Shown here piece by piece: positions 3,849 to 28,014 of a DNA stretch of 30,631 nucleotides (its first letter is position 1; each line of letters opens with the position of its first letter). The notes below the pieces were generated by a model. The model searched no databases and was not told where the DNA came from. It was given only the letters and a program-made list of their open reading frames with translations. The stretch spans positions 1 through 30,631 of the forward strand of contig JASFTE010000001.1 of NCBI GenBank assembly GCA_050114035.1, read 5' to 3'. The DNA is from Armatimonadota bacterium (GTDB taxonomy: Bacteria > Armatimonadota > Zipacnadia > JAUWAU01). Made by a program: the position numbers and the translations under genes.

Positions 3849-4424
3849 CTAGACCGCGTGTCCCCTTTCCCCTCGCCCCTGGCCCCCGCCGGTAAGATGA
3901 GGGAACGCCTCCCGGACGATGGTGGTGGCTATACCCGGGACCGCCTCTTCGATCTCAGGCGACAGATGCTCCCCAAAGCAATACGGATCATGCACCTCCA
4001 CGCCGTATATGGCGACGACGGAGGGCACGTTCATTCCCACGCGCTGGCCGAAGCGCAGGGCCGTGTGGAAATCCATGCCATGCTGCCACGCCAGACGGTG
4101 TGTGCCGGCCTTCATCTCCAGGGGAACACGATGGAGCGTCCCCGGCGGAGCTTCGCCCGTCTGGATGGCGTCGATGACGATCAGCTTGTGGTATCCCTGA
4201 ATGACATCGAGCAGGCGGAGACCACCTGCGCTGGCCTCGTCCACGTCTGCCTCGTGGGCCTCGATGCGGCGGCGCAGCTCCCTGGCGACATGCAGCCCCA
4301 CCGCGTCGTCTGACATGATGGGGCTGCCGAGGCCGAGGATGAGAACGTCCGGACGCTCTCGCCCGGACGGTCCCGCGTGTGCATCCGTCACAGAATTGGT
4401 CTGTGGCTCTGCGTCTGCGGCCAC
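3849..4424 (-). CDS. [NiFe]-hydrogenase maturation endopeptidase (HybD/HycI family)
   Basis: VLILGLGSPIMSDDAVG, LIVIDAI, WQHGMDF supply the D/D/H metal residues. Start uncertain: GTG 4433, 4424 or 4391; the ORF-track start 4535 lies inside mvhA. Confidence 0.9.
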   Translation of the reverse strand: MAADAEPQTNSVTDAHAGPSGRERPDVLILGLGSPIMSDDAVGLHVARELRRRIEAHEADVDEASAGGLRLLDVIQGYHKLIVIDAIQTGEAPPGTLHRVPLEMKAGTHRLAWQHGMDFHTALRFGQRVGMNVPSVVAIYGVEVHDPYCFGEHLSPEIEEAVPGIATTIVREAFPHLTGGGQGRGERGHAV

Positions 4425-4432
4425 CGAGCTCA

Positions 4433-5899
4433 CTATCCTCGTGTCAGCGTCTGCACGACGCGCCCGGCGGTGTCGCGGATCTCGATTTCGAGAGGCATCT
4501 GCCCCGGCAGGGCATGGGTCGCGCAGCCGAAGCACGGGTCGTACGCGCGGAAGGCCATCTCCACCATGTTGAGCAGGCCCTCGCTGACCTCTGTGCCGGG
4601 CACGATGAGGGCCTGGGCGGCCCGCTTGATGGACATGCAGATGGCGCCGTAGTTGTGGCCCGTGCCGACGATGAGGTTGACCTTCTTCGCCATGCCCTCT
4701 TCGTCGGGCACGTAGTGGTGGATGAGCGTGCCGCGTGGCGACTCGACTACGCCCATGCCCTCCCCGGGCGTCTCGGTCGGGATGGCGTGGAACTCCTCGC
4801 TCACGATCTCCTCGTCCTGGATGAGCTCCACCATGCGCTCGGCCGAGTAGAGCATCTCGACGAGCCGCGCCCAGTGCATCGCCAGCGTGGCATGGCAGGG
4901 CTTGCCGCCGACAGTCTCGTACATGCGTTCGTACTCGGCCTGTGCCTGCGGCGTGGCCATGCCGTCGGCCGCGTTCAGGCGCGCCAGGGGGGCCACGCGA
5001 TACAGGCCGCTGTCCTTGCCGTCCTCGAGGCCCTTCCAGCCCACCTGCTTGAGGTATGGGAACTTGAGGTACGACCAGGACTCGACGTGCTCGCCTATGT
5101 GCTCGAGGTAGTCGCTCGCCCCGAACTTGTTGATCTCGTTGCCCTCGGGATCGACTGTTCGGAGCATCCCGTCGTAGAAGTTCACGCAGTTGTTCTCGTC
5201 CACCAGCCCCATATAGTACGTCTGGTGCTGGAACGCGTCGCTCAGGATCAGGTCAACGTACTCCTGGTTCCCAAGCACAACGTCGTTGAAGACCTGGAGG
5301 GAGAGCTTGGCGAACTCCACGGCGCCGTTGGCGATCTCTTGGACTCTCGCCCGCTCTTCGTCATCCAGGCCTTTGCTGACACCTCCAGGGATGGCGGCCA
5401 CCGGGTGAACGGGACGCCCGCCGAGGATCTCGATGACTTCGTAGCAACTGAGCCGGGCATCAATGACCTGCTTGCCCAGCTCGACGCCGACCTTGCCAAT
5501 CAGGCCGAGGATGTTGCGCTCGGCCGGGTCCGCGGTCGGGCCGACGACGAAGTCGGGGCCGGCAAGGATATAGAAGTGGGTGGCATGGTCGCCCACGTAG
5601 AAGGCGTTGTAGAGCAGCTCGCGCAGCTTCTTGGCGGCGCCGGGGGGATCGACCCGGTAGCAGGCGTCCGCGGCCTTGGCGCTGGCCATGTGGTGCGCCT
5701 CCGGGCACACGCCGCAGATGCGCGGCGTAATGCGCGGCAGCTCCTCGATAGGGCGGCCCTCGCAGAATTTCTCGAAGCCGCGGAGCTCCGGGATCTGCAG
5801 ATAGGCGTCGCGCACTCCGCCCTCGTCGTTGAGGAAGATCTGTATCTTCCCATGTCCTTCAAGGCGAGTGATCGGATCAACTACGAGCGTCTGTGCCAT
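4433..5899 (-). CDS. mvhA: [NiFe]-hydrogenase large subunit, MvhA/VhuA type (group 3c)
   Basis: L1 RICGVCPEAH, L2 RAYDPCFGCATH, N-terminal DPITRLEGHG, 26-aa cleavable C-terminal extension; SD GAGGAGG; context mvhD-mvhG-hdr. Confidence 0.95.
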   Translation of the reverse strand: MAQTLVVDPITRLEGHGKIQIFLNDEGGVRDAYLQIPELRGFEKFCEGRPIEELPRITPRICGVCPEAHHMASAKAADACYRVDPPGAAKKLRELLYNAFYVGDHATHFYILAGPDFVVGPTADPAERNILGLIGKVGVELGKQVIDARLSCYEVIEILGGRPVHPVAAIPGGVSKGLDDEERARVQEIANGAVEFAKLSLQVFNDVVLGNQEYVDLILSDAFQHQTYYMGLVDENNCVNFYDGMLRTVDPEGNEINKFGASDYLEHIGEHVESWSYLKFPYLKQVGWKGLEDGKDSGLYRVAPLARLNAADGMATPQAQAEYERMYETVGGKPCHATLAMHWARLVEMLYSAERMVELIQDEEIVSEEFHAIPTETPGEGMGVVESPRGTLIHHYVPDEEGMAKKVNLIVGTGHNYGAICMSIKRAAQALIVPGTEVSEGLLNMVEMAFRAYDPCFGCATHALPGQMPLEIEIRDTAGRVVQTLTRG

Positions 5900-5948
5900 G
5901 CCTCAGAGTCCTCCTCGGTCCGGAAGCGACCGGTAAGTACAGGCCCCG

Positions 5949-6968
5949 CTAGCCCTTCGCTGCCGCCCGCGCCGACTCGGCTGGGAGGGCCGTCTCTTCG
6001 CTGTGAGCGATGGGGCGATATCGCCGGCGAAGCAAGGAGCGGGCCAGGCCAAACCGGTAGAAGGTGCCGCCCGGGTCCTTTATCTGGGCGATGATCTCCT
6101 GAATTGTGTCCTCGTCCTCCGAGTCTATGACCGAGGCGACAGCACTGAGCATCTTTGCGCCTTGGTCCAGCACATTGGCCGGAGGCCCGTAGCAGCCGCG
6201 GCACGGCATGTTGGCCGTGGGGCACTTGGCGCCGCACCCGGCCCGGGTCGCGGGGCCCACGCAGATTACGCCCTGGTCGAGCAGGCACTGCTCGGGATCG
6301 GCCTTGATCTCGTGCGGACGATGGATGGCCGTGAGCTTCTTCTCCTCCCGCTCCCGCTCGCACTCCTCGCAACACGTCTTCTCCAACGCGCCAACGACGG
6401 AGCCTGGAGGCGGGAGCTCGCCGCTCAGGACGGCCGCCAGCACCTCCCAGATGCGGTCCCCCTCGGGCGGGCAGCCGGGGACGTAGTACTCCACCTGGAC
6501 GGTCTGGTCGAGAGTCCTCACCGTGTTGTAGAAGGCGGGTAGCTCCAGCTCGCCGGCGGGGACCTGCGTGCTCGTCTGGGGCACGGTACGCTCCGGGTTG
6601 TCGGTGGATTGACTCTCGTGGTACGCGCGATCGAAGATCTCGTCCCGGTCGTGGAAGTTGGCCAGGCCCGGAATGCCACCGAGATGTGCACACGCGCCAA
6701 AGGCAACCATGACCTTGGACTTGGCGCGCAGGAGATGAGCGATCTCCTCCTGTTCGGATGTGCGGATGCCTCCGTTGAAGAGGCACAGGTCGATGCTGCC
6801 GTCATCCATCGCCTCGACGTGATGGACCTTGAAGTCGAGAGCGACGGGCCAGAAGACGATATCGACTGCGTCGGCCAGATCGAGTACCTTCTGGCCGATC
6901 TGGAGGACAGCGATCTCGCACCCGCCACAGCTTGCGGCCCAATAGAGCGCGACCTTTGGCTTGCTCAC
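5949..6968 (-). CDS. mvhG: [NiFe]-hydrogenase small subunit, MvhG type (339 aa)
   Basis: GTG 6968 overlaps the mvhD stop (GTGA). ASCGGCE, FGACA, VPGCPP proximal-cluster motifs plus Cys-rich C-terminus (CCEEC, CLL..G.IC.GPATRAGC...CP...MPCRGC). No Tat signal, so cytoplasmic. Confidence 0.95.
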   Translation of the reverse strand: MSKPKVALYWAASCGGCEIAVLQIGQKVLDLADAVDIVFWPVALDFKVHHVEAMDDGSIDLCLFNGGIRTSEQEEIAHLLRAKSKVMVAFGACAHLGGIPGLANFHDRDEIFDRAYHESQSTDNPERTVPQTSTQVPAGELELPAFYNTVRTLDQTVQVEYYVPGCPPEGDRIWEVLAAVLSGELPPPGSVVGALEKTCCEECEREREEKKLTAIHRPHEIKADPEQCLLDQGVICVGPATRAGCGAKCPTANMPCRGCYGPPANVLDQGAKMLSAVASVIDSEDEDTIQEIIAQIKDPGGTFYRFGLARSLLRRRYRPIAHSEETALPAESARAAAKG

Positions 6969-7414
6969 GGCGCGGGGACCTCCTCTTCCGTGTGGACCTG
7001 CCCGGCCCAGTTCAGCGGCCCGAGGCCGCGGACTGTCTCTGTTATCTCTGACACGACCTGGCCGAACTTCTCGCCCTCGGACGCCGACACCCACTCCAGG
7101 CGGACACGCTCTCTCTCGATGCCGAACTGGTCCAGCAGCGCATGCAGCAGGGGGATGCGCCGCATGACATTGTAGTTGCCGCGCTGATAGTGGCAGTCCC
7201 CCGGGTGGCACCCGCAGATGAGGACACCATCGGCGCCATCGGCCAATGCCTTCAGGACGAAGCTCGGATCCACCCGGCCGCTGCACATCACTCGGATGGG
7301 GATAACGTTCGGCGGGTACTTCCGCCTACTGACGCCTGCCAGGTCAGCTCCCTGGTAGCTGCACCAGCGGCATAGGAACCCGACTATCTGTGGCTCGAAT
7401 GCTTCGTCAGCCAT
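6965..7414 (-). CDS. mvhD: [2Fe-2S] adaptor subunit MvhD
   Basis: GFLCRWCSYQGADLAG, IRVMCSGRVDP, GADGVLICGCHPGDCHY, RVRLEWVSASEG; SD GAGGAG. Confidence 0.96.
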   Translation of the reverse strand: MADEAFEPQIVGFLCRWCSYQGADLAGVSRRKYPPNVIPIRVMCSGRVDPSFVLKALADGADGVLICGCHPGDCHYQRGNYNVMRRIPLLHALLDQFGIERERVRLEWVSASEGEKFGQVVSEITETVRGLGPLNWAGQVHTEEEVPAP

Positions 7415-7455
7415 GTGCGATTCGCTCCTCGACGATCGTCATCGCGCGCCAGGCG

Positions 7456-9219
7456 TCAGGAGACCTGGACCAGCAGCGCGCCCTCCAACTCCGCCAGGAT
7501 CTGCTTGTCGCTGAAGCCCCTCTGGTGTGCGGCGCCCGACGGGCAGGCCGCCACGCACGTGCCGCAGCCTTTGCAGAGTACCTCTTCGATCTTGGATATC
7601 TTCTTTTCGTCGTCGAACTCGATAGCCGTGTACGGACACAGTTCGATACATGTCTTGCAGCCAGCGCAGAGGTCCTCGTCGATCGCGGAGGTGATAGGCT
7701 CGATCGCGACGCGCCCGGCATCGATGAGGCTAAGAGCCTCCGCGGCCGCGGCGGCGCCCTGCGCCACGCTGTCGGGGATGTCCTTCGGGCCCTGGCACGC
7801 GCCGGCGATCATGACCCCGTCCGTGCTCGTGGAGACAGGCGCCAGCTTGGGATGCTGCTCCAGGAAGAAGCCGCCGTCGGCGCAGGAGAGCGAGAAGGTG
7901 TGGGCCACGTCCTCGGAGTCTGCATGTGGCTCGAGGCCGACGGCAAGGACCACCATGTCCACGGGGATGCGTCGGATCTCGCCCAGCAGCGTATCCTCGC
8001 ACTTGATGGTGAGCTTGCCCTCCTCCTCGGGCGTCTCGGCCACCTCGGTGACCTCAGCGCCTTTGCCGCGGACGAAGATGACGTCCTCGCTCAGCACACG
8101 CTCGTAGAACTCCTCGTAGCCCTTGCCAAAGGCACGTACGTCGATGTAGAACTCGTACACGTCCGCATCGTGCAGCTTTTCCCGCACAAGGTGCGCGAAC
8201 TTCATGGCGTACATGCAGCACACGCGTGAGCAGTACGGGTTGTTGTTCTCGTCCCGGCTTCCCACACAGTGGATGATGCCGACGCTCCTCGGGACCGAGC
8301 CGTCCTGCATCACGATGTCTCCGCCCGTGGGCCCGCTGGCGTTGCTCATCATCTCGAACTCGAGGCCGCTGATGACGTTCGGCAGCCGCCCGTAGCCGTA
8401 CTGCGGAGTGCGGGCCGGATCGAATGGCTTGAAGCCAGTGGCCACGACGATCGCCCCCACATCCACTTCCCGCTCCTTCTCCTCGGTCTCGAACGTGATG
8501 GCCTCCGGCTCGCAGACGGTCTCGCAGAATTTGCAGCCCTCTGTCTGGGAGTGGATGCAGCTCTCCGTATCGATGACGGGAACGTTCGGCACAGCCTGGG
8601 CGAAGGGGACATGAATGGCCTTCGGCGGCCCGAGCTGAAGCTCGCTGTGGCGTACCTGGTCTGCTTCCTCGATCTTGATGCACTCGGTCGGGCACACCAG
8701 CGCGCAGGCGGCGCACGTTATGCAGTCCGCTGACGGCTCGCTGAAGGCGGTGGTCACTTCCCGCTCATCGCCGCGGTTGACGAAGTTGACGATGCTCTTG
8801 CCGACGACCTCGTCACAGACCCGCACGCAGAGGCCGCACAGAATACATTCCTCGTCCTCGTCCCCGGCCGGGAACCGCGACTTCTCGATCCCCATGTCGG
8901 TGGCCAGCTCGCGGACCTTCTCCGCCTTCGGCGCCCGGGCCATGAGGAGTTCGACCATCATTTTGCGCGCGTCGAGCACCTCGGGCGTGTCCGTCCGGAC
9001 CACCAGGTCATCCTGGACCGGATAGCTGCAGGAGGCGGCCAGGGACGACGCATCGCCGTCGCCGATCTGCACCAGACACACGCGGCACGCCGAGTATGGC
9101 TCGATGGAAGGGTGGAAGCACAGCGTCGGGATCTCGACGCCGAGCTCCTTGGCGGCGTCCAGGACCGTACTGCCCTCTTCCACCTCGACCTGTCTGTCGT
9201 CGATGGTGAGAGTCACCAT
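7456..9219 (-). CDS. hdrA: Fusion: NuoG/HydA/HoxU-like N-terminal Fe-S module (aa ~1-185) + C-terminal half of heterodisulfide reductase subunit A
   Basis: N-part: VTLTIDD...IPTLC..C..C...C ([2Fe-2S]), CILCGLCVRVC and CITCAACALVCP. C-part: KAIHVPFAQAVPN, VGAIVVATGF, LEFE...SGPTGG, HCVGSRD..YCSRVCCMYAMK, GACQGPKDIPDSVAQG, C-terminal CAGCKTCIELCP / CKGCGTCVAACP. Confidence 0.93.
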   Translation of the reverse strand: MVTLTIDDRQVEVEEGSTVLDAAKELGVEIPTLCFHPSIEPYSACRVCLVQIGDGDASSLAASCSYPVQDDLVVRTDTPEVLDARKMMVELLMARAPKAEKVRELATDMGIEKSRFPAGDEDEECILCGLCVRVCDEVVGKSIVNFVNRGDEREVTTAFSEPSADCITCAACALVCPTECIKIEEADQVRHSELQLGPPKAIHVPFAQAVPNVPVIDTESCIHSQTEGCKFCETVCEPEAITFETEEKEREVDVGAIVVATGFKPFDPARTPQYGYGRLPNVISGLEFEMMSNASGPTGGDIVMQDGSVPRSVGIIHCVGSRDENNNPYCSRVCCMYAMKFAHLVREKLHDADVYEFYIDVRAFGKGYEEFYERVLSEDVIFVRGKGAEVTEVAETPEEEGKLTIKCEDTLLGEIRRIPVDMVVLAVGLEPHADSEDVAHTFSLSCADGGFFLEQHPKLAPVSTSTDGVMIAGACQGPKDIPDSVAQGAAAAAEALSLIDAGRVAIEPITSAIDEDLCAGCKTCIELCPYTAIEFDDEKKISKIEEVLCKGCGTCVAACPSGAAHQRGFSDKQILAELEGALLVQVS

Positions 9220-9232
9220 GGATTGATGCCCC

Positions 9233-11086
9233 CTACTCCACGATCACAGCGTCGTACCGACATACATCGCGGCACACGCCGCACTTGATGCACTTCTCCG
9301 ACTGTATTCGCCGCGGATCCCCGTTCTCGCCGATTATGCACGTCTCGGGGCACTGCCGGTCGCACGCGCCACAGCCGTTGCACTTGTCCACGCTGATGCT
9401 GAAGCTGATGAGCTCTCGGCAGACGCCTGCCGGGCATTTCTTGTCCGCAACATGCGCGTCATACTCGTTCCTGAAGTAGCGAATGGTGCTCAGGACGGGA
9501 TTGGGTGCGGTGCCGCCCAGCGCACACAGCGAGGCGCCCTTGACCTGCTGGCCGATTTCCTCCAGCAGCTCCACGTCCCCCTCGCGTCCCTTGCCGTCGC
9601 ACAGCCGGGTCAGGACCTCAAGCATCTGCTGCGTGCCGTCGCGGCACGCCGTACACTTGCCGCACGACTCCTCGGCAGTGAACTGCAGGAAGTACCGGGC
9701 GACGTCCACCATGCACGTACCCTCGTCCATGACCACCATGCCGCCCGATCCCATCATCGAGCCGACTTCCTGGAGCTGCTCGTAGTCCACCGGGAGATGG
9801 ATCAGATCTGCCGGAATGCACCCGCCCGATGGCCCGCCGGTCTGGACGGCCTTGAACTCCCTGCCGTCCAGGATGCCGCCGCCGATCTCGTAGACGAGCT
9901 CCTTGAGGGTGATGCCCATGGGGACCTCAACCAGGCCGGTGTTGTTGACCTTGCCCACCAGGGAGAAGATCATGGTCCCCTTGCTCTGCTCCGTGCCTAT
10001 CCCCGCGAACCACTCGGCGCCGTTCCGGATGATGTACGGGACGCTGCCCCACGTCTTCACATTGTTGATGACCGTGGGCTGCCCCCAGAGGCCGCTCTGG
10101 GCAGGATAGGGCGGACGCGGCCGTGGCTCGCCGACCGTGCCCTCCACCGAGGCGAGCAGCGCGGACTCCTCCCCGCAGACGAATGCGCCGGCCCCCCGCG
10201 TTACCTTGACGTCGAATGAGAAGCCCGTCCCGAGGATGTTCTCGCCGAGCAGACCGTACTCGCGCGCGCTTTCCAGCGCAGCCTCGATGTGTTTGAGCGC
10301 CAGGGGGTACTCGGTGCGGACATAGATGTGGCCCTCCACCGCGCCGATGGCGTAGCCGCCGATGAGGAGTCCCTCGAGCACGCTGTGGGGATTGCCTTCG
10401 AGGAGGCTTCTGTCCTGGAACGCCCCCGGGTCGCCCTCGTCCGCGTTGCACACAATGTACTTCGGCGTTGCTGCCTGCTCGCGGCAGAGCTGCCACTTCC
10501 GGCCGGTGGGGAAGCCTGCCCCCCCTCGTCCCCGAAGTCCCGACCGGAGGATCTCTTCCACGATCTGCTCCGGACTCATCTCAGACAGGGCCTTGGCCAG
10601 CCCGCTGTAGCCGCCGATCGCGAGGTAGTCCTCCATGCTGGTGGGATCGATGTAGCCGTTCTGCGCGAGCAGAAGCCGACGTTGGCTCTTGTAGAAGGGA
10701 ACGTCGGGCTCCTTGATGATCTTCTCGCCCGTGTTGGGATCCTCGTACAGCAAACGGTCAATGACGTTGCCGGCGAGGACGGTCTCCAAGAGGATTTCGT
10801 CGACGTCCTTCGGGGTCACGCGCTGGTAGAAGATCTCGCTTGGGCGCAGAACCACGAGCGGCCCGCGCTCACAGAAACCATGGCAACCAGTGGCTCGCAG
10901 ATCGACCTTGTCCTGGAGGCCTCGCTCGTCGATTGCCTTGCGGAAGGCCTCGGCCACGTCCACGGCTCCCGAAGCCGTGCAGCCCGTACCGGCACAGACG
11001 GTGACGCAGGGCTTTGACGGATCACGTTGCTTGGCGAGCTCCTCTGCCAGTTGGTTCAGCGCCTCGGCGCTCTGCAATCGCGCCAT
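9233..11086 (-). CDS. nuoF: NuoF/HydB-like NAD(P)H- and FMN-binding subunit, long (HydB-type) architecture
   Basis: N-terminal thioredoxin-like [2Fe-2S] (CAGTGC..CHGFC), GRGGAGFPTG, NADEGDPG, GAGAFVCGEE, GGPSGG, ESCGKCTAC..SLC, AH....CPAGVC, C-terminal 2x[4Fe-4S]; SD AGGAGGGAG. Confidence 0.95.
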   Translation of the reverse strand: MARLQSAEALNQLAEELAKQRDPSKPCVTVCAGTGCTASGAVDVAEAFRKAIDERGLQDKVDLRATGCHGFCERGPLVVLRPSEIFYQRVTPKDVDEILLETVLAGNVIDRLLYEDPNTGEKIIKEPDVPFYKSQRRLLLAQNGYIDPTSMEDYLAIGGYSGLAKALSEMSPEQIVEEILRSGLRGRGGAGFPTGRKWQLCREQAATPKYIVCNADEGDPGAFQDRSLLEGNPHSVLEGLLIGGYAIGAVEGHIYVRTEYPLALKHIEAALESAREYGLLGENILGTGFSFDVKVTRGAGAFVCGEESALLASVEGTVGEPRPRPPYPAQSGLWGQPTVINNVKTWGSVPYIIRNGAEWFAGIGTEQSKGTMIFSLVGKVNNTGLVEVPMGITLKELVYEIGGGILDGREFKAVQTGGPSGGCIPADLIHLPVDYEQLQEVGSMMGSGGMVVMDEGTCMVDVARYFLQFTAEESCGKCTACRDGTQQMLEVLTRLCDGKGREGDVELLEEIGQQVKGASLCALGGTAPNPVLSTIRYFRNEYDAHVADKKCPAGVCRELISFSISVDKCNGCGACDRQCPETCIIGENGDPRRIQSEKCIKCGVCRDVCRYDAVIVE

Positions 11087-11183
11087 TGATGCTCCCTCCT
11101 GTGGGGTCCCCGCTTGCGAGGCTCGAGCCGGTAGCCGGTACTCAGACTGGCCGGTGGCGCCCCTCGCCTCTAAAGGAGCAGCC

Positions 11184-11645
11184 TCACTCCTTGTCGCGAT
11201 ACTGCCTTATCAGTCTTGGCACCCGATTGGGGCGGATTCTGCCGTGGTACTGCGGCCCGACCATGAGAAGCGGTCCGAGGGCGCACGCGCCGAGGCAGTT
11301 GACGGTCTCCACCGTGAAGAGCCCATCCGGCGTGGTCGCCCCGGCATCGATGCCCAGATCCTGCTCCAGCCTCTGCAGCACCCTCGGGGCGCCCCGAGCG
11401 TAGCAGGCCGTGCCCATACACACCTTGATGACGTACTTACCTCGACGCTCGAGGCTGAACTGCTTGTAGAAGGTGGCCGCCCGTACCACTTGGCTGATGG
11501 GCACCGCGAGCTGCTCAGCCGTTGCCTCCAGCGCCTCCCGCGGCAGGTAGTTGTACTCCTCCTGGATGTCCTGCAGAGCCTTGAGAAGAGCGGACTGGTC
11601 GCCCGCGTACTGTTCGAGGATCTCTGTCGCCGCCTCCGACGCCAT
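11184..11645 (-). CDS. nuoE: NuoE/HydC-like [2Fe-2S] subunit
   Basis: LQDIQEEYNYLP, ATFY..FS, VCMGTAC, NCLGACALGP; SD AGGAGG. Confidence 0.95.
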   Translation of the reverse strand: MASEAATEILEQYAGDQSALLKALQDIQEEYNYLPREALEATAEQLAVPISQVVRAATFYKQFSLERRGKYVIKVCMGTACYARGAPRVLQRLEQDLGIDAGATTPDGLFTVETVNCLGACALGPLLMVGPQYHGRIRPNRVPRLIRQYRDKE

Positions 11646-11657
11646 CGTACGGGCCTC

Positions 11658-12485
11658 CTACGCTTTGTTCAGGACGAGGTCGCCCTTGCGCATCGTGCGC
11701 ACGGACGGAACGCGCATGCCGAGACACTGCTCCCAGCACAGGCCACAGCCGGTGCACTTCTCCAGGTCCACTTGGCGCGGCTTCTGTTTCATGTGCACCT
11801 TGAAGTTGCCCACGTAGCCCTCTACTTCTGCAACCTCCGAGTACGTGAGCAGCTCGATGCTCTCGTGCTGCCCTACAGAGACCATCTTCGGCGTCAGGAT
11901 ACAGGCCGCGCAGTCGAGAGTGGGGAAGGTCTTGTCGAACTTGCCCATCTGTCCGCCGATGCTCGGCTCGCGCTCCACCAGGTACACCCGCCGGCCCGAA
12001 TCGGCCATCTTCAGCGCGGCCTCAATGCCGGCGATGCCGGCCCCAACGACCATGGCGTTCGGGTTCACGGTAACTTCCAGCGGCTCCAGCGCCTCGTGGT
12101 GCTGCACGCGGCGAATGGCGGCGGCGAGGATTCGCTTCGCCTTCTCGGTGGCCGCACCGCGGTCCTCAGTCACCCACGATGCGTGCTCCCGGATGTTGGC
12201 CATCTGGAACAGGTACGCGTTCAGGCCCGCCTCCGCGCACGCCCGACGGAACGTCGGCTCGTGCATCAGGGGCGAGCATGATGCCACGACCACCCGGGTG
12301 AGGTTGTGCTCCTTGATGTCGTCTCGTATCAGTACTTGCCCGGGGTCGGAGCACATGTACTGGTAGTCCTGGGTCACGACGACGCCCTCGAACCCCTTGG
12401 CGAACTCTGTCAGTTCGTTCACGTCCACCGTGCCCGCGATGTTCGTTCCACAGTGGCAAATGTAGACACCGATGCGTTCCGCCAA
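11658..12485 (-). CDS. hdrA: N-terminal half of heterodisulfide reductase subunit A (275 aa)
   Basis: TTG start 12485 after SD AGGAGGG. IGVYICHCGTNIAG, YMCSDPG, ASCSP, FAD-binding VVGAGIAG..AA, GGQM..FDKTFPTLDC, then a single CTGCGLCWEQC motif and TAG stop. Confidence 0.93.
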   Translation of the reverse strand: MAERIGVYICHCGTNIAGTVDVNELTEFAKGFEGVVVTQDYQYMCSDPGQVLIRDDIKEHNLTRVVVASCSPLMHEPTFRRACAEAGLNAYLFQMANIREHASWVTEDRGAATEKAKRILAAAIRRVQHHEALEPLEVTVNPNAMVVGAGIAGIEAALKMADSGRRVYLVEREPSIGGQMGKFDKTFPTLDCAACILTPKMVSVGQHESIELLTYSEVAEVEGYVGNFKVHMKQKPRQVDLEKCTGCGLCWEQCLGMRVPSVRTMRKGDLVLNKA

Positions 12486-12531
12486 TTGAATCGCCCTCCT
12501 ACGGGAGCTCGTCCGCGCTTGGGACCCGTCT

Positions 12532-13434
12532 CTAGCCCGCCGCGACCGGCTCCGTAGCCTCCGAAAGCGGCTTGACCTTGGCAAGCATGTCGTCCACGGG
12601 GACTAAGGATGCCTCGAGGCTGACATCCTGCGCCGGCAGGCCCATGGCCATTCCCATGAGCTGCGGGAAGTAGACTATCGGCATCTGGATCTCCCTGCCC
12701 ATACGCTCGCCGATGGCGTCCTGGTAGCCCTCGAGGTTCATGTGGCACAAGGGGCACGCCGTCAGTATGCAGTCGGCGCCCCGGTCCATTGCCAGCTTCA
12801 TCAAGCTCGTGCACAGCTTCACGCTCACGTCCTTCGACGTCTGCATCAACATCCCGCCGCAGCATTTGGCCGTGAGCGGGTAGTCCACCGGAACGGCCCC
12901 GCACATCTCGATCACTGCATCGAGGCCCTTGGGGAACTCATCCTCCAGGAAGGTCGCATACGGCCGCACGAGCTGGCATCCGTGGTACGGCGCGACGCGC
13001 AGCCCGGCGAGATCGACCTTGACCTTGGAGGCGATGGCCCCTTCGGGCAGGTCATTCAGGACGACGTCGAGGAAGTGGCGCACTTCGACGGTGCCCTCGT
13101 ACTTGAGCCCCGCGGCCGCCAGACCCGCGTTGACGCGCTCGCCGATGCGCCGATCGTCCCTCATGTAGTTATTTGTCTTGCTCAACGTCATGTAGCAACC
13201 GTTGCAGCACGTCACTACGTCGCGCTCGGCTGGCTCCGCCAGAGCCAGGTTGCGGGCCGAGACGGCAAAGGACGTTATCTCGGCCATCGACGTGTAGCAC
13301 GTGGCGCCGCAGCAGTTCCAGTCATCGAGGTGGACCAATTCGAGCCCGAGTGCCTTCGACACGGCCTCGGTGGATCTGCCGTACGGCACAGCGCTGGCCT
13401 CGAGAGCGCAGCCAGGATAGAAGGTGTAGGTCAC
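12532..13434 (-). CDS. hdrB: Heterodisulfide reductase subunit B (two CCG domains)
   Basis: FYPGC, WNCCG, CCNGC, YHGCQLVRP, KCCGG, ACPLCHMNL; GTG overlaps the hdrC stop (GTGA). Confidence 0.93.
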   Translation of the reverse strand: MTYTFYPGCALEASAVPYGRSTEAVSKALGLELVHLDDWNCCGATCYTSMAEITSFAVSARNLALAEPAERDVVTCCNGCYMTLSKTNNYMRDDRRIGERVNAGLAAAGLKYEGTVEVRHFLDVVLNDLPEGAIASKVKVDLAGLRVAPYHGCQLVRPYATFLEDEFPKGLDAVIEMCGAVPVDYPLTAKCCGGMLMQTSKDVSVKLCTSLMKLAMDRGADCILTACPLCHMNLEGYQDAIGERMGREIQMPIVYFPQLMGMAMGLPAQDVSLEASLVPVDDMLAKVKPLSEATEPVAAG

Positions 13435-14021
13435 TCAGACCCCTCCTCGGCTTCAACGGCCGCCATGATCTTCTGCAGGTCCTCGACCCCGCGAATGGGC
13501 TTGGCCCCGAGGTCCAGGCGTCCCCGCTGTCGCATCTTCCAGGCGAGCGGGAGCTGCTTGAGGCCCTCAACGAACTTCCCCGTTCGCATCGTGAACCGGA
13601 TCATAAACTTGGTCTCAGGGTTGCGCCCGTATTCCTTCACCGTGTCCACGAAGGCCTCGGTGAGGATCGTCGCTTCCTTGCCCTCGCGCGGCTCAATGCC
13701 GTGCTGGAGCGCCAAGCGCTTGAGCTCGTACATCAAGTCAGTGAACTTGATGCCGGACGGACACCGGGCAGCGCAACTGTAGCAGGACGCGCACATCCAT
13801 ACGGTGTTGCTGCGCAGGATCTTGTCCAGCATGCCCGCACGGAAATACGCGATGATCTGGCGTGGCGTGTAGTCCATCTCGTCGCTCGTGGGGCAGGAGG
13901 CGCTGCATGTGCCGCACTGGATGCACGTCTTCAACTTCTCGCCGTCCGGCATGCGCAGCACGTCCTCGACGAACTGCTCGTTCAGCGTCTTCCCGCTGGA
14001 GCCCGGATGGTTGGCAGCCAT
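13431..14021 (-). CDS. hdrC: Heterodisulfide reductase subunit C (2x[4Fe-4S])
   Basis: CIQCGTCSASCP and WMCASCYSCAARCP; SD GGAGGGA; immediately upstream of hdrB. Confidence 0.93.
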   Translation of the reverse strand: MAANHPGSSGKTLNEQFVEDVLRMPDGEKLKTCIQCGTCSASCPTSDEMDYTPRQIIAYFRAGMLDKILRSNTVWMCASCYSCAARCPSGIKFTDLMYELKRLALQHGIEPREGKEATILTEAFVDTVKEYGRNPETKFMIRFTMRTGKFVEGLKQLPLAWKMRQRGRLDLGAKPIRGVEDLQKIMAAVEAEEGSE

Positions 14022-14218: not shown

Positions 14219-14236
14219 TTGTGACAGGTTTCACGA
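14219..14236. promoter_or_regulatory. Rex-like (or CRP/FNR-family) binding box upstream of hdrC
   Basis: TTGTGACAGGTTTCACGA matches 12 of 14 specified positions of the Rex consensus TTGTGAA-N4-TTCACAA, and 9 of 10 of CRP TGTGA-N6-TCACA. Confidence 0.6.
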
Positions 14237-14248
14237 TTCGTCGCACAG

Positions 14249-14277
14249 AAAAAATCCCCGAGCATCTGACTGGGGAT
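14249..14277 (-). terminator. Intrinsic (Rho-independent) terminator
   Basis: Minus-strand RNA AUCCCCAG-ucagaug-CU(C)GGGGAU ending in a U6 tract. Confidence 0.65.
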
Positions 14278-14382
14278 ATCGTGGGTGCGCCGTATTCCGA
14301 TGCCTACTGCCCCTTCGGCTAGAGAAAGGAGGTCCCCCACTCAGGCAACCCAAATACCCGACCGGCAGTCTGCCCCACCCGT
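14249..14382 (-). ncRNA. Candidate ~130-nt structured RNA (sRNA or attenuator/riboswitch leader), family not recognised
   Basis: Bounded by a near-consensus promoter and an intrinsic terminator. Nested pairings GGGUG/CACCC, GUAUUU/GAAUAC, UGCCU/AGGCA enclose ACCUCCUUUCU. Confidence 0.45.
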
Positions 14383-14388
14383 GCACGC

Positions 14389-14416
14389 AGTATAGTCGCT
14401 TTGGCCAATTTGTCAA
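14389..14416 (-). promoter_or_regulatory. sigma70-type promoter facing the hdr-nuo-mvh operon
   Basis: -35 TTGACA (14416-14411), 16-nt spacer, -10 TATACT (14394-14389). Confidence 0.75.
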
Positions 14417-14737: not shown

Positions 14738-14781
14738 CCGTTGGGAGCGGCTGCAGGCCGCCGTCTGACGGAGTGCACCAA

Positions 14782-17139
14782 GTGACGGACAGTCGCGCCA
14801 TCATCGAAGTCAACGGCATTGTGCAGGGCGTGGGGTTTCGGCCCTTCGTGCATCAGCGCGTGCGCCTGTACGGCCTCAAAGGCTGGGTGCTGAACTCACG
14901 ACAGGGCGTTCAGATGGAGGTGGAGGGCGCCTCCGAGGACGTCCGCCGATTCGTTGATGATCTGGAGACGCAGCCTCCTGTGCTGGCGGCCATCGAGCGC
15001 GTCCACGTCCAGCACGCCGAGCCGGTGGGCTACGAGGCGTTCGAGATACGACGCAGCGAAGAACGCCCGGCCGATAGTGAGACGGCGGAGGACCGTATCT
15101 GCTTCGTCTCTCCCGATGTGGCCACGTGCGAGGATTGCCTCAGGGAGCTCCTCGATCCAGGCGACCGCCGCCACCGGTACCCGTTCACGAATTGCACCAA
15201 CTGCGGCCCTCGCTTCACCATCGTCGAGGACACTCCGTACGACCGCGACAAGACCACGATGCGCGCTTTCCCCATGTGCGACGACTGCCACGGTGAGTAT
15301 GGGGACATCGAGGATCGACGCTACCACGCGCAGCCGAACGCATGCTGGCGCTGCGGCCCCCAACTGACGCTCGAGCTGCCCGGGTCACCCCCGGCCGAGG
15401 GCGACGCCATCACGGCGACGCAGCGGATCCTGGCAGACGGCGGCATAGTGGCCGTGAAGGGGCTGGGCGGGTTCCACCTGGCGTGTGACGCCGAGAACGC
15501 TGCCGCGGTCCGTCGCCTGCGCGCGCGCAAGCATCGCGAGGAGAAGCCCCTCGCCATCATGTGCGGCGCCGCCGAGGCGGCGGAGCGCATCTGTGATACG
15601 GGCGAATCTGAGCGCCGCCTCCTCACCGATCCGCGGCGGCCCATTGTGCTGCTCCGGAAGCGGCCGGACTGCCCCATCGCCGAGCAGGTGGCGCCCGGCA
15701 ACCGGTACCACGGCGTCATGCTCCCGTACACGCCGCTGCACGCCTTGCTGTTCCAGGACGCGCCATACACGGCCCTCGTGATGACCAGCGGCAACCTGAG
15801 CGAGGAGCCACTGACGCACACCAACGAGGGTGCCCGGCGGGGCCTGCTCCCGATGGCCGATGCGCTGCTGGCGCACAACCGGGACATCCACGCGCGCTGC
15901 GACGACTCCGTGGCGCGTATCGCGGCCGGCGGGCCGCTCGTCATGCGTCGCTCGCGCGGGTACGCGCCCTTTCCGGTCCGCCTCGGCGAGGCGACCCCCA
16001 TGATCCTCGCGTGCGGCGCGGAGCTCAAGAACACCTTCTGCCTGGTGCGCGATGGGTATGCCTTCATCAGCCAGCACATCGGCGACCTGAAGAACGCCAA
16101 GGCGAGCGCGTACTTCGAGGAGGAGATCCAGCACTACCAGGAGTTGTTCCGCTCCGACCCCGAGATCGTGGCCCACGATCTGCACCCGCAGTACCTGTCG
16201 ACGCGGTACGCCCTCGGGCACTGCTGCTCGACGAAGATCGCCGTCCAGCACCACCACGCACACATGGCGAGCTGCATGGCCGAGCATGGCATCAGGGAGC
16301 CGGTAATCGGCGTGAGCTTCGACGGCCTCGGACTGGGCGCCGACGACACGGTGTGGGGTGGGGAGTTCCTCGTCGGCGACCTCGTGCAGTTCCGCCGCGC
16401 CGGGCACTTCGCTACCGTTCCCATGCCGGGCGGCGACGCCGCCACCGAGCAGCCGTGGCGCATGGCGCTGAGCTACCTGCTCGCCGCATTCGGCGACGAT
16501 TACCGCACGCTGCCACTGGCGCTCAACGAGCGCATCGACGACGAGCGGCACGAGGTCGTGGCGCACATGATCGAGCGCCAGTTCAACTCGCCGCTCACCT
16601 CGAGTTGCGGCCGGCTGTTCGATGCCGTTGCGGCGCTTGTGGGCCTGCGCGGCGAGGTGCGCTTCGAGGGCCAGGCGGCGATGGAGCTGGAGATGCACTG
16701 CGCCGACGACGTGTCTGCCGGCTACGACTTCGCCATCGTGGAGCCGGACGAAGGCGCGGATGAGCCACTTCTACTGGACTGGCGGCCCGCGTTCCGCGGC
16801 ATGGTCGATGACCTCGTCTCCGGCATTGACTCGCCGGTGATCGCGGCCAGGTTCCACAACGCGCTCGTCACCGCCACAGCGGCGATGTGTTCGGCCCTCT
16901 CGGAACGAACCGGTCTGCGGAAGGTCACGCTCAGTGGGGGCTGCTTCCAGAATGTCCGATTGCTCGACGGCCTCGTGCCCGCACTCAAGCAGCGAGGCCT
17001 CGATCCCTACACCCAGCACCTGGTGCCGCCCAACGACGGCGGCATCTCGCTTGGGCAGGCAGCCGTGGCCCACGCCCGCACGGCGGCGACCACTGGAAAT
17101 GCGCCCACGTACAAGGAGGAAGTGGGGCGATGTGCTTAG
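14782..17139 (+). CDS. hypF: Carbamoyltransferase HypF
   Basis: Acylphosphatase GIVQGVGFRPFV, Zn fingers CEDC..CTNCGPR..CDDC..CWRCGP, KGLGGFHL, HDLHP, QHHHAH, DGLG.G, LSGGCFQN, PPNDGGISLGQ. Start GTG 14782 (CGGAG 8 nt upstream) preferred over 14773. Confidence 0.97.
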   Translation: MTDSRAIIEVNGIVQGVGFRPFVHQRVRLYGLKGWVLNSRQGVQMEVEGASEDVRRFVDDLETQPPVLAAIERVHVQHAEPVGYEAFEIRRSEERPADSETAEDRICFVSPDVATCEDCLRELLDPGDRRHRYPFTNCTNCGPRFTIVEDTPYDRDKTTMRAFPMCDDCHGEYGDIEDRRYHAQPNACWRCGPQLTLELPGSPPAEGDAITATQRILADGGIVAVKGLGGFHLACDAENAAAVRRLRARKHREEKPLAIMCGAAEAAERICDTGESERRLLTDPRRPIVLLRKRPDCPIAEQVAPGNRYHGVMLPYTPLHALLFQDAPYTALVMTSGNLSEEPLTHTNEGARRGLLPMADALLAHNRDIHARCDDSVARIAAGGPLVMRRSRGYAPFPVRLGEATPMILACGAELKNTFCLVRDGYAFISQHIGDLKNAKASAYFEEEIQHYQELFRSDPEIVAHDLHPQYLSTRYALGHCCSTKIAVQHHHAHMASCMAEHGIREPVIGVSFDGLGLGADDTVWGGEFLVGDLVQFRRAGHFATVPMPGGDAATEQPWRMALSYLLAAFGDDYRTLPLALNERIDDERHEVVAHMIERQFNSPLTSSCGRLFDAVAALVGLRGEVRFEGQAAMELEMHCADDVSAGYDFAIVEPDEGADEPLLLDWRPAFRGMVDDLVSGIDSPVIAARFHNALVTATAAMCSALSERTGLRKVTLSGGCFQNVRLLDGLVPALKQRGLDPYTQHLVPPNDGGISLGQAAVAHARTAATTGNAPTYKEEVGRCA

Positions 17140-17351
17140 GCGTCCCGGCGGAAGTGTTGAGCATCGAGGCGGACGGCCGCGCCGAGGTCTCCATCGGCGG
17201 CGCCGTCCGCGAGGCGCGGGTGGATCTCGTGCCCGACGTCAAGACGGGCGACTACGTTCTCCTGCACGCCGGCTTCGCCATCCAGCGACTCGATGCTGAA
17301 GCGGCCCAGGAGATTCTGGATCTGTTCAGGGAGCTCATCGAGACCCAATGA
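17130..17351 (+). CDS. hypC: Hydrogenase assembly chaperone HypC (73 aa)
   Basis: MCLGVP..., GDYVLLHAGFAI; SD AAGGAGG at 17113-17119; overlaps the hypF end. Confidence 0.96.
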   Translation: MCLGVPAEVLSIEADGRAEVSIGGAVREARVDLVPDVKTGDYVLLHAGFAIQRLDAEAAQEILDLFRELIETQ

Positions 17352-18466: not shown

Positions 18467-18508
18467 CTGACGGCAATCCCCTGACGCTCCCCAGCGGGGT
18501 GGTCAAGC

Positions 18509-19519: not shown

Positions 19520-19625
19520 TCTATCGCCCCGGCGCACGCGCTCCCCCCCAGGCCGGCGCCACGAGGAGAGCGCCTCGCAGGCGACGAAGTACGGGCGGAC
19601 GCCCGGACACGCGGAGGTGCACACC

Positions 19626-21185: not shown

Positions 21186-21351
21186 ACGCCGTGCCGCTTG
21201 AGGAGACGGTGTGGCCGGTCCTGCGCACTGCCGCTGCCCTCAACGCCACATTCCACTGGACGCAGGGCAAGTGCCCCTCCCAGTTCGTACTGTGAGCAGC
21301 TCTGGGCCGCTCCCCGCACGTGCGACTGCGCGGCGTTCGCAGCAGGGCCGC

Positions 21352-21380
21352 TTGTGCACGGCCGCCTGCCGTGCTATAAG
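21352..21380 (+). promoter_or_regulatory. Candidate promoter for the ABC importer with a palindromic operator in the spacer
   Basis: TTGTGC-17 nt-TATAAG with extended TGn; GCACGGC-N5-GCCGTGC at 21356-21374. The -10 lacks the conserved last T. Confidence 0.35.
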
Positions 21381-21428
21381 CCAGGTGCCATGTGCGGACG
21401 CGAGGGCGAGAGCGCCTGCAGTGTTCAC

Positions 21429-23660: not shown

Positions 23661-23664
23661 CCCC

Positions 23665-27917: not shown

Positions 27918-28014
27918 CGGCGCCGCCGCCTGCGGGGCTCTTTGCCATCCCCCCGACGGCGCGTCACAGGACTTACTTCGGTCGCGAAGAAGATCCGTGT
28001 CAAAGGAGAAGTTT

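Follow-up and report, generated by a model that had tools for sequence, protein, structure and literature searches.

An Mvh-Hdr-Bfu operon of an Armatimonadota bacterium is predicted to encode a hydrogenase complex with two bifurcation-competent centers

We analyzed a window of 30,631 nucleotides of an Armatimonadota genome (contig JASFTE010000001.1, assembly GCA_050114035.1, positions 1 to 30,631) and found an operon that probably encodes one soluble multi-subunit enzyme, an MvhAGD-HdrABC complex with a BfuABC module built into its HdrA, which would be driven by H2. We infer the direction and the coupling of the reaction, which is most likely the oxidation of H2 coupled to the reduction of a disulfide, NAD+, and ferredoxin. 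A preliminary description of the locus had proposed a single H2/NAD(P)H/ferredoxin/disulfide complex with two bifurcation-competent centers, and the proposal is supported, more strongly than that description states, by gene fusions, gene order, the Bfu cluster ligands, and the HdrA glutamate and lysine. The features of the locus are as follows.

14773 to 19519, plus strand: hypF, hypC, hypD, and hypE, [NiFe] maturation, accessory and divergent to the operon (Pfam HypF domains, HupF_HypC, HypD, AIRS/AIRS_C)
14389 to 14416, minus strand: promoter-like site TTGACA-16-TATACT upstream of hdrC, matching 11 of 12 consensus positions
13431 to 14021, minus strand: hdrC, 196 aa, 2x[4Fe-4S] (Pfam Fer4_8, Fer4_17)
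12532 to 13434, minus strand: hdrB (Pfam CCG twice; full-length alignment to methanogen HdrB 8RVU_b, 173 bits)
11658 to 12485, minus strand: hdrA-N, 275 aa (aligns to residues 4 to 261 of 5ODC HdrA, 332 bits)
11184 to 11645, minus strand: bfuC, NuoE/HydC-like, 153 aa, [2Fe-2S] cluster C1 (Pfam 2Fe-2S_thioredx, E = 1e-48)
9233 to 11086, minus strand: bfuB, long NuoF/HydB-type, 617 aa, FMN/NAD(H) site and clusters B1 to B5 (match to 7T2R_B)
7456 to 9219, minus strand: bfuA::hdrA-C fusion, 587 aa (match to WorA, then to HdrA)
6965 to 7414, minus strand: mvhD, 149 aa, [2Fe-2S] adaptor (Pfam FlpD, E = 2e-53)
5949 to 6968, minus strand: mvhG, 339 aa, long three-cluster small subunit (full-length alignment to 5ODC_E, 237 bits)
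4433 to 5899, minus strand: mvhA, 488 aa, large subunit of a group 3c-type [NiFe] hydrogenase (top solved-structure matches to MvhA)
3849 to 4433, minus strand: hydrogenase maturation protease of the HycI family (Pfam HycI, E = 1e-11; start codon uncertain)

The operon runs on the minus strand from the hdrC start at 14021 to the mvhA stop at 4433 and encodes HdrC, HdrB, HdrA, the NuoE/HydC-like BfuC, the long NuoF/HydB-like BfuB, MvhD, MvhG, and MvhA. It is intact, with intergenic gaps of at most 97 nt. The site at 14416 to 14389 is the sole strong minus-strand promoter-like match between 3600 and 14800, and no minus-strand terminator was seen inside the operon. The source organism is an uncultured wetland bacterium. 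Fragments 99 to 100% identical to five of the operon genes were present in a wetland metatranscriptome; they were few and possibly derived from DNA. Related loci also carry a gene at the position of the HycI-family protease gene.

Pfam, solved-structure matches, and coordinates bore out the earlier account of an operon for MvhAGD, HdrABC, and long HydB-type and HydC subunits. The best solved-structure matches of its products were MvhA, MvhG, MvhD, HdrA, and HdrB of methanogen Mvh-Hdr complexes and HydB of the NiFe-HydABCSL enzyme of Acetomicrobium mobile, and Pfam assigned FlpD/MvhD, NiFeSe_Hases, Oxidored_q6, two CCG domains (HdrB), and Fer4 (HdrC). MvhA carries the L1 motif RICGVCPEAHH and the L2 motif AYDPCFGCATH, in agreement with the MvhA motifs given in PMC6085437. 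The start of mvhG, GTG at 6968, overlaps the mvhD stop as GTGA, and mvhD, which is single copy in the genome, encodes a protein matching 8RVU_F and 5ODC_D at E = 1e-53 to 1e-51. HdrB retains all ten motif cysteines (C9, C41, C42, C77, C80, C153, C191, C192, C227, and C230). HdrC has the motifs CIQCGTCSASC and CASCYSCAARC, and its gene is syntenic with hdrC of related loci.

The preliminary description was right about the identity and motifs of HdrA, but HdrA is not a single gene: one piece lies at 12485-11658, and the other makes up the C-terminal two thirds of the product of 9219-7456. The cut lies inside the inserted ferredoxin domain, between its two cluster motifs, and bfuC and bfuB occupy the gap. 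HdrA-N, whose TTG start at 12485 is preceded by AGGAGGG, contains the N-terminal [4Fe-4S] domain, the start of the FAD Rossmann fold (GAGIAG), a DCxxC motif, and the first CxxCxxCxxxC of the inserted ferredoxin domain, the cysteines C277, C280, C283, and C287 (308-aa numbering) being conserved without exception in the 34 split-type relatives. In the fusion protein, residues 1 to 190 form a BfuA (HydA/NuoG N-terminal-like) adaptor with one [2Fe-2S] and two [4Fe-4S] clusters, of which residues 4 to 187 match WorA of 9MQX (E = 3e-39). Residues ~195 to 587 comprise the second inserted-ferredoxin-domain motif, the FAD environment, and the C-terminal 2x[4Fe-4S] domain of HdrA; residues 195 to 582 match HdrA residues 275 to 653 of 8RVU (E = 6e-123). 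The glutamate and lysine reported earlier are present in LEFE (residues 286 to 289) and CCMYAMK (334 to 340), which align to E356 and K409 of 5ODC HdrA, and E289, K340, and all cluster cysteines of the fusion are invariant in 25 family members. The sequence thus indicates that HdrA is built from two polypeptides predicted to re-form the HdrA fold, with both pieces contributing ligands to the FAD site, to the thioredoxin-reductase-like domain's [4Fe-4S] cluster, and to the two clusters of the inserted ferredoxin domain, and that the BfuA adaptor covalently precedes the second piece, adjoining the inserted ferredoxin domain.

All of the NuoF motifs noted previously (the N-terminal [2Fe-2S] site, GAFVCGEE, GGPSG, C..H..C..C, and the C-terminal 2[4Fe-4S]) are found in BfuB, whose best solved match is A. 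mobile NiFe-HydB (7T2R_B), aligned gap-free at 832 bits. Its Pfam domains are Complex1_51K, NADH_4Fe-4S, and a C-terminal Fer4 pair. The N-terminal [2Fe-2S] site is C31, C36, C68, and C72, the C-terminal region has a pair of CxxCxxCxxxC motifs, and the B1, B3/B4, and B5 cysteines are present. The C..H..C..C site corresponds to the Bfu B2 site (C458, C496, H545, C551, and C556), while the BfuC cysteines are 76, 81, 117, and 121. Judged by their ligands, which in BfuB include all those that define bifurcating Bfu enzymes, BfuB and BfuC have the complete complement of cofactors seen in HydBC-type enzymes that bifurcate.

The split-type arrangement was found in 41 loci from many phyla, cut at the same place, and 17 distinct complete loci, representing about ten phyla, preserve the order hdrC-hdrB-hdrA-N-bfuC-bfuB-fusion-mvhD-mvhG-mvhA. 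The BfuA::HdrA-C fusion is a feature of this locus and of all related split loci, and the matches listed include more than 120 full-length homologues of it. A second fusion, HdrA-N::BfuC, is present in six related loci (L010, L019, L022, L028, L031, and L036) and was confirmed by Pfam in L010 and L019. We found no description of this architecture in the publications examined, which do not include the Appel 2021 HdrA review, and it is not among the Bfu types of Schut et al. 2022.

Like methanogen MvhAGD-HdrABC (5ODC, 8RVU, 9SW2) and the unsplit bacterial hdrCBA-mvhDGA operons, the locus encodes six subunits with cofactor ligands in the same outer gene order, including equivalents of HdrA E356 and K409, an HdrB with both non-cubane motifs, and a three-cluster MvhG; the unsplit relatives share 57 to 69% identity in the HdrA parts. 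In contrast to these systems, HdrA here is two polypeptides, and BfuCBA takes the docking place of ferredoxin or a polyferredoxin (MvhB, FmdF). With HydABC-type enzymes the complex shares all B1 to B5 ligands and the BfuC cluster, BfuB being closest to A. mobile HydB and the BfuA part to the short WorA adaptor of WorABCSL, with clusters A1, A2, and A4. MvhA is almost as similar to A. mobile HydL (7T2R_D, 395 bits) as to MvhA (9SW2_F, 402 bits; 5ODC_F, 396 bits). However, BfuA is the N terminus of HdrA-C rather than a free subunit, the small subunit is of the long Mvh type, with the short A. mobile subunit aligning to MvhG residues 1 to 188 only, and the hydrogenase would reach BfuA only through MvhD and the HdrA FAD, not by direct docking.

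The only characterized enzyme with HydBC-type and HdrA-type modules in series is the class II benzoyl-CoA reductase of Geobacter metallireducens (BamBCDEFGHI, BCRII, or "Bam-Bfu"), which provides a structural and enzymatic precedent (bioRxiv 10.64898/2026.04.10.717634). The analogy with Bam drawn earlier holds for the kinds of module, which include an adaptor resembling MvhD and an output resembling HdrBC, but not for the wiring. In Bam, electrons enter from Bfu, which acts via BamI and the MvhD-like BamF on the HdrA C-terminal ferredoxin domain, and the tungsten enzyme is supplied through the inserted ferredoxin domain. In the present locus, the input role falls to the hydrogenase, and Bfu is attached to the inserted ferredoxin domain. 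Low-potential electrons exit by this domain both in Bam (bioRxiv 10.64898/2026.04.10.717634) and in methanogen complexes, where they pass to ferredoxin or polyferredoxin, and the Bfu module is therefore predicted to be on the low-potential output branch of HdrA, so that the order of the two centers differs from that in Bam. The locus also lacks a tungsten BamB and a fused-dimer BamE, and both non-cubane clusters are preserved in its HdrB, unlike BamD, which in most homologues has a disrupted distal cluster.

In the mechanism that we propose, MvhA would oxidize H2 and MvhG, MvhD, and the C-terminal ferredoxin domain would carry the electrons to the HdrA FAD. The FAD would bifurcate, one electron passing via HdrC to the HdrB disulfide site and the other through the inserted ferredoxin domain and BfuA to the BfuBC center, which would split the electrons that it receives between NAD(P)+ and ferredoxin. 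Overall, the stoichiometry would be approximately 4 H2 + 2 RS-SR + NAD+ + Fd(ox) -> 4 RSH-equivalents + NADH + Fd(red), and it may be reversible. Against this proposal, electron entry to Bfu from a low-potential branch is unprecedented, since characterized Bfu enzymes exchange mid-potential electrons via BfuA. As for the disulfide substrate, DsrC was not found in the genome, and the source organism is not a methanogen but a bacterium without known CoM-S-S-CoB.

We argue that the operon encodes one physical Mvh-Hdr-Bfu complex because of the two fusion types, the identical gene order, and the predicted reassembly of the HdrA pieces. The predicted assembly of the fusion protein with HdrA-N scored 0.83, compared with 0.01 for the best of three controls; of 80 solved complexes, 55 reach the 0.83 mark, compared with 3 of 110 mismatched pairs. 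The model places the second BfuA [4Fe-4S] motif (residues 166 to 175) in contact with the C-terminal cluster motif of HdrA-N. The high score may merely reflect the predictor's memory of solved HdrA structures. A shared operon is no proof of a complex, and the genes could instead specify two cotranscribed enzymes, Mvh-Hdr and a free BfuBC NADH:ferredoxin module, or the split hdrA could be a pseudogene or assembly artifact. We regard this as very improbable: it is already contradicted by the two kinds of covalent fusion tying Bfu subunits to HdrA halves, both HdrA pieces are intact with every ligand conserved, the split position recurs across phyla, and contigs of the source metagenome run span the region at 95 to 100% identity. 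No other or intact hdrA was found in the genome (83% complete), which leaves the split gene as its sole detected copy.

Two further readings accept the complex and differ on its function. The same complex could run in reverse, BfuBC confurcating NADH and reduced ferredoxin and electrons passing via BfuA and HdrA to MvhAG for H2 evolution, with the HdrBC thiol/disulfide site as a co-substrate or redox gate. Bfu enzymes are reversible, and the Bam module is a confurcating input; many related cassettes, including those of Aminicenantes and Eisenbacteria, carry sensor and regulator genes (HATPase, DRTGG, PHP, sensory [FeFe]-hydrogenase-like) typical of fermentative, H2-evolving HydABC operons, which fit the reverse direction equally well. 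An [FeFe] hydrogenase was not found in the genome, and thus no other H2-evolving route for NADH and ferredoxin is evident. However, this direction would require electron entry into HdrA by the low-potential branch, and the FAD could then confurcate only with a thiol as the second, high-potential donor, which makes no obvious physiological sense; the genome also encodes acetyl-CoA synthase, consistent with a demand for NADH and reduced ferredoxin derived from H2. We therefore consider H2 evolution unlikely. Less likely still is a Bfu that is a plain, non-bifurcating NAD(P)H dehydrogenase, NAD(P)+ replacing free ferredoxin as acceptor of the second HdrA electron in an H2:disulfide/NAD+ enzyme. 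BfuB carries Gln where the A. mobile protein has M204, a Met described as typical of bifurcating enzymes, which also counts against our proposal, and most BamGHI clusters are reduced in vitro by NADH alone (bioRxiv 10.64898/2026.04.10.717634). On the other hand, the Met is retained in 33 of 36 relatives, and the B2 to B5 ligands, including the B2 His, which are absent from non-bifurcating NuoF/HoxF homologues, are conserved here and in all 36.

The Mvh-Hdr-Bfu layout is widespread among uncultured microbes. If the H2-driven mechanism is correct, NADH and reduced ferredoxin would be obtainable from H2 even at low H2 pressure, because disulfide reduction is exergonic.

Nine structural genes were found head to tail on the minus strand at positions 14021-4433, with intergenic gaps of no more than 97 nt, in the order hdrC-hdrB-hdrA-N-bfuC-bfuB-fusion-mvhD-mvhG-mvhA, where Bfu denotes a HydABC/NuoEFG-like module. 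Searches against Pfam and solved structures confirmed the preliminary description of an operon encoding MvhAGD, HdrABC and a long HydB-type subunit together with HydC. The LEFE and CCMYAMK motifs that had been attributed to HdrA were likewise present, aligning with E356 and K409, respectively, of the HdrA in PDB 5ODC, but HdrA is encoded by two genes rather than one:

12485-11658, minus strand: hdrA-N (275 aa), aligning to HdrA residues 4-261
9219-7456, minus strand: bfuA::hdrA-C (587 aa), the C-terminal two-thirds corresponding to HdrA residues 275-653

The genes bfuC and bfuB sit between these two pieces. The hdrA-N product spans the N-terminal cluster domain and the start of the FAD Rossmann fold, together with a DCxxC motif and, from the inserted ferredoxin domain, its first CxxCxxCxxxC motif. 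In the fusion protein, residues 1-190 form a BfuA-type adaptor that has a single [2Fe-2S] motif and two for [4Fe-4S] clusters; it matched the N termini of WorA and HydA, and its closest solved relative was WorA of WorABCSL (PDB 9MQX). In methanogen MvhAGD-HdrABC, HdrA is a single chain that binds FAD and six [4Fe-4S] clusters, whereas here all of the ligands and the FAD-site residues are kept but distributed over two genes. As a consequence, two chains must jointly build the FAD site, both inserted-domain clusters and the cluster of the thioredoxin-reductase-like domain. No further hdrA was detectable in the genome, which is 83% complete. We considered whether the split hdrA was a pseudogene or an artifact. 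This reading was ruled out because, among 80 loci taken from species-representative genomes, 41 keep the split form with all ligands intact.

The remaining Hdr and Mvh subunits resembled those of methanogen MvhAGD-HdrABC. MvhA carries the L1 and L2 motifs RICGVCPEAHH and AYDPCFGCATH, which are of the group 3c type (defined as ICGxCxxxH and AYDPCxxCATH; PMC6085437), and its top solved-structure matches were MvhA chains. MvhD, a [2Fe-2S] adaptor, matched Pfam FlpD (E = 2e-53) and chain 8RVU_F (E = 1e-53), and MvhG is the long three-cluster type of small subunit, with 14 cysteines and a full-length alignment to 5ODC_E. In HdrB, both CCG motifs are complete and all 10 motif cysteines align with those of methanogen HdrB, while HdrC has two CxxCxxCxxxC motifs, corresponding to two [4Fe-4S] clusters.

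The Bfu subunits in turn resembled the family defined by Schut et al. 2022, with the B1-B5 sites and FMN/NAD site in BfuB, a [2Fe-2S] site in BfuC and the BfuA-type adaptor. BfuB, a NuoF/HydB-like protein of 617 aa, contains the FMN/NAD site, B1, B2 (defined in the family by four Cys or Thr ligands and a conserved His), the C-terminal B3/B4 and the N-terminal B5. The NuoF motifs named in the preliminary description were all found, and its C..H..C..C site is the B2 site of Bfu enzymes, in which the five ligands C458, C496, H545, C551 and C556 correspond, in a gap-free alignment, to C438, C476, H525, C531 and C536 of HydB from Acetomicrobium mobile (NiFe-HydABCSL; PDB 7T2R). All Bfu-defining ligands of BfuB, including the B2 histidine, were kept in 36 of 36 sequences. 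Two residues near FMN/NAD in the A. mobile protein, A202 and M204, are said to mark bifurcating members. The former is conserved in the window (A222). The position of the latter, near FMN/NAD, is occupied by Q224, versus methionine in 33 of 36 relatives, and methionine is also kept there in characterized Bfu enzymes. BfuC (Pfam 2Fe-2S_thioredx) has the four cysteines for a [2Fe-2S] cluster. Elsewhere in the same genome, contig C502 encodes another [NiFe] large subunit, a distant one with 26% identity to MvhA, and next to it a full-length long BfuB paralogue (58% identical); additional NuoF-type genes, all partial, lie on contigs C254 and C317.

The window is a complete contig of 30.6 kb from a genome of 5.08 Mb that was assembled from a wetland metagenome. 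For the ribosomal protein uL2 of this genome, no named relative exceeded about 70% identity, and the nearest names were Limnochordia/Bacillota and Armatimonadota. A promoter scan identified one strong candidate upstream of hdrC:

14416-14389, minus strand: promoter-like site, strong

A scan with a hairpin loop limit of 8 nt found no minus-strand terminator inside the operon. The leader 3' of the promoter-like site (14219-14416, minus strand) contains a hairpin with T6 (ATCCCCA...GGGGATTTTTT, about 14277-14249), whose loop of about 12 nt exceeds that limit and which was absent from the terminator-scan list. After the hairpin lies TCGTGAAACCTGTCACAA (14236-14219, minus strand), which we take to resemble a Rex-type box. 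A HycI-type protease gene comes after mvhA, and hypFCDE is transcribed divergently from the operon. The upstream flank (421-2074) encodes ThuA-like and Fe/Mn superoxide dismutase proteins, and the downstream flank (19440-30630) encodes a sodium:solute symporter, an oligopeptide-type ABC transporter and an FGE-sulfatase-domain protein; none of these flanking genes has an evident connection to the operon. A few wetland metatranscriptome fragments with 99-100% identity were found for mvhA, mvhD, the fusion gene, hdrA-N and the hdrB/hdrA-N junction. These fragments are a weak sign that the operon may be expressed, since DNA can be present in such RNA libraries.

The existence of a single H2/NAD(P)H/ferredoxin/disulfide complex, as put forward in the preliminary description, was supported as a prediction by four lines of evidence: two types of gene fusion, the conserved gene order and a predicted assembly. 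The BfuA::HdrA-C fusion covalently links the Hdr and Bfu systems, which argues for one complex. More than 120 full-length homologues of this fusion occurred among the matches listed, at 57-85% identity, and 13 clusters (50% identity) spanned the entire BfuA/HdrA junction in a search of 1.84 billion cluster representatives. A second fusion, HdrA-N::BfuC, occurred as a single open reading frame in six related loci (L010, L019, L022, L028, L031 and L036) from Planctomycetota, archaeal, Verrucomicrobiota, Myxococcota, Desulfobacterales and Thermoplasmata genomes, and was confirmed with Pfam in L010 (2923-4599) and L019 (6455-7768). The predicted assembly of the fusion protein with HdrA-N scored 0.83, and none of three controls exceeded 0.01; of 80 solved complexes, 55 attained the mark of 0.83, as did 3 of 110 mismatched pairs. 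In the predicted model, the second [4Fe-4S] motif of BfuA abuts the C-terminal cluster motif of HdrA-N. This score may partly reflect the prediction model's memory of solved HdrA structures; the modeled assembly does show that the two HdrA pieces are predicted to be complementary.

The full gene order was found in 17 distinct loci, with the deposited labels Aminicenantes, Eisenbacteria, Bacillota, Armatimonadota, Zixibacteria, Planctomycetota, Acidobacteriota, Ignavibacteriota, Verrucomicrobiota, Alphaproteobacteria and one archaeon, and split-form loci on truncated contigs extended to Chloroflexota, Calditrichota, Thermoplasmatota and others. In many relatives, genes for HATPase_c, DRTGG, PHP and sensory [FeFe]-hydrogenase-like (Fe_hyd_lg_C) proteins lie between hdrA-N and bfuC (for example, L001:3540-7320 and L003:3237-7292), a set familiar from HydABC operons and absent from the window. 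A small additional thioredoxin-like gene between bfuC and bfuB, seen in the cassette-bearing relatives, is also absent from the window. Five deltaproteobacterial loci (L027, L028, L031, L032 and L042) retain hdrA-N, bfuC, bfuB, the fusion gene and mvhD without mvhG and mvhA, and have more HdrA-like genes and hdrCB downstream, suggesting that the split HdrA/Bfu unit also serves hydrogenase-free complexes. On a Fidelibacterota chromosome (L023:9998-14851), all that is left of BfuA on an HdrA C-part is a truncated stretch (query residues 89-185), and no hdrCB, hdrA-N or bfuCB was detected in the 10 kb upstream; this locus may represent a decayed or rearranged form. When 82 HdrA C-parts were placed in a maximum-likelihood tree, the split forms clustered, requiring 7 changes versus 27.8 in shuffles. 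They did not form one clade, and well-supported branches force at least 3 changes, so the tree does not support a single origin of the split form, and repeated origin or loss may lie behind the pattern. The Mvh-Hdr-Bfu layout is widespread, combines known kinds of module and is experimentally tractable.

We then weighed membership in the known enzyme classes. In group 3d Hox enzymes, HoxF/HoxU lack B2-B5, the small subunit is of the short one-cluster type and neither Hdr nor MvhD is present, whereas the window encodes B2-B5 and a long small subunit; among solved-structure matches, the Hox chains of 5XF9 scored below Mvh chains. Assignment to either Hox or NiFe-HydABCSL was ruled out on three grounds: the type of small subunit, the occurrence of MvhD and Hdr, and the clusters of BfuB. 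The closest precedent for coupling both module types is the class II benzoyl-CoA reductase (Bam/BCRII) complex, in which BamGHI confurcates and BamE then bifurcates in series (bioRxiv 10.64898/2026.04.10.717634). There, Bfu connects through the MvhD-like BamF to the C-terminal ferredoxin domain of HdrA, BamE is a fused HdrA dimer, and Bfu feeds the HdrA input side while the tungsten enzyme receives its electrons from the inserted ferredoxin domain (bioRxiv 10.64898/2026.04.10.717634). In the window, by contrast, BfuA is fused before the second half of the inserted ferredoxin domain of a split monomer unit, with the hydrogenase at the input and Bfu at the low-potential exit, so that the order would be bifurcation and then Bfu, the reverse of Bam. 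The analogy with Bam drawn earlier needs to be qualified as to the side of HdrA on which Bfu is placed. Membership in Bam itself was ruled out by this different wiring and by the lack of a tungsten aldehyde-oxidoreductase-type BamB/BamC domain in the window ORFs scanned. Bam-Bfu is among the Bfu types catalogued by Schut et al. 2022, but an Hdr/Mvh-linked type is not. We found no description of an Mvh-Hdr-Bfu operon or of such a split HdrA in the searchable literature; the HdrA-module review of Appel et al. 2021 may mention one.

In methanogens, electrons from H2 pass through MvhG and MvhD to the C-terminal ferredoxin domain of HdrA, and the HdrA FAD then splits them, one electron reaching HdrB by way of HdrC and the other leaving for ferredoxin or polyferredoxin via the inserted ferredoxin domain (bioRxiv 10.64898/2026.04.10.717634); PDB 9SW6 contains the polyferredoxin MvhB. 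The fused BfuA would be the acceptor at the exit of the inserted ferredoxin domain, leading to the FMN/iron-sulfur center of BfuBC, a type of center that in every characterized Bfu enzyme passes electrons to or from NAD(H) and ferredoxin. From this placement we infer that the complex is an H2:disulfide/NAD+/ferredoxin oxidoreductase, using roughly 4 H2 + 2 RS-SR + NAD+ + Fd(ox). With standard values of -140 mV for disulfide, -280 mV for NAD and -500 mV for ferredoxin, a rough estimate would put the mean acceptor potential near -265 mV, at which the complex could run at about 10 Pa H2 (E about -296 mV); the mean for a stand-alone Bfu hydrogenase would be near -390 mV by the same rough estimate. 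The genome has an acetyl-CoA synthase (CdhC/AcsB) gene on contig C16, and no [FeFe] hydrogenase, Rnf or DsrC was found in the 83%-complete assembly, so the organism would benefit from NADH and reduced ferredoxin supplied at the expense of H2. Somewhat short of an even chance, in our judgment, is that two bifurcations occur in series, with the HdrA FAD splitting H2 electrons between disulfide and a very-low-potential branch and Bfu splitting that branch between NAD+ and ferredoxin.

Mvh-Hdr operons are very common in bacteria and other non-methanogens. The variant described here hard-wires Mvh-Hdr to an NAD(H)/ferredoxin module and so names two likely substrates. The split and fused genes also bear on the annotation of such loci, in which the pieces are labeled "4Fe-4S binding protein," "2Fe-2S iron-sulfur cluster-binding protein" or "heterodisulfide reductase subunit A," and which genome papers and metabolic reconstructions annotate as plain MvhADG/HdrABC. 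With Bam, this would be a second, differently wired case of two unrelated bifurcation machines in one complex; here, unlike in Bam, the partner is a hydrogenase and Bfu lies on the low-potential side. If serial bifurcation is true, many uncultured anaerobes could use trace H2 to produce NADH and reduced ferredoxin, or alternatively could reach potentials below that of ordinary ferredoxin, and the bacterial "methanogen-type" group 3c hydrogenases would gain a defined physiological role.
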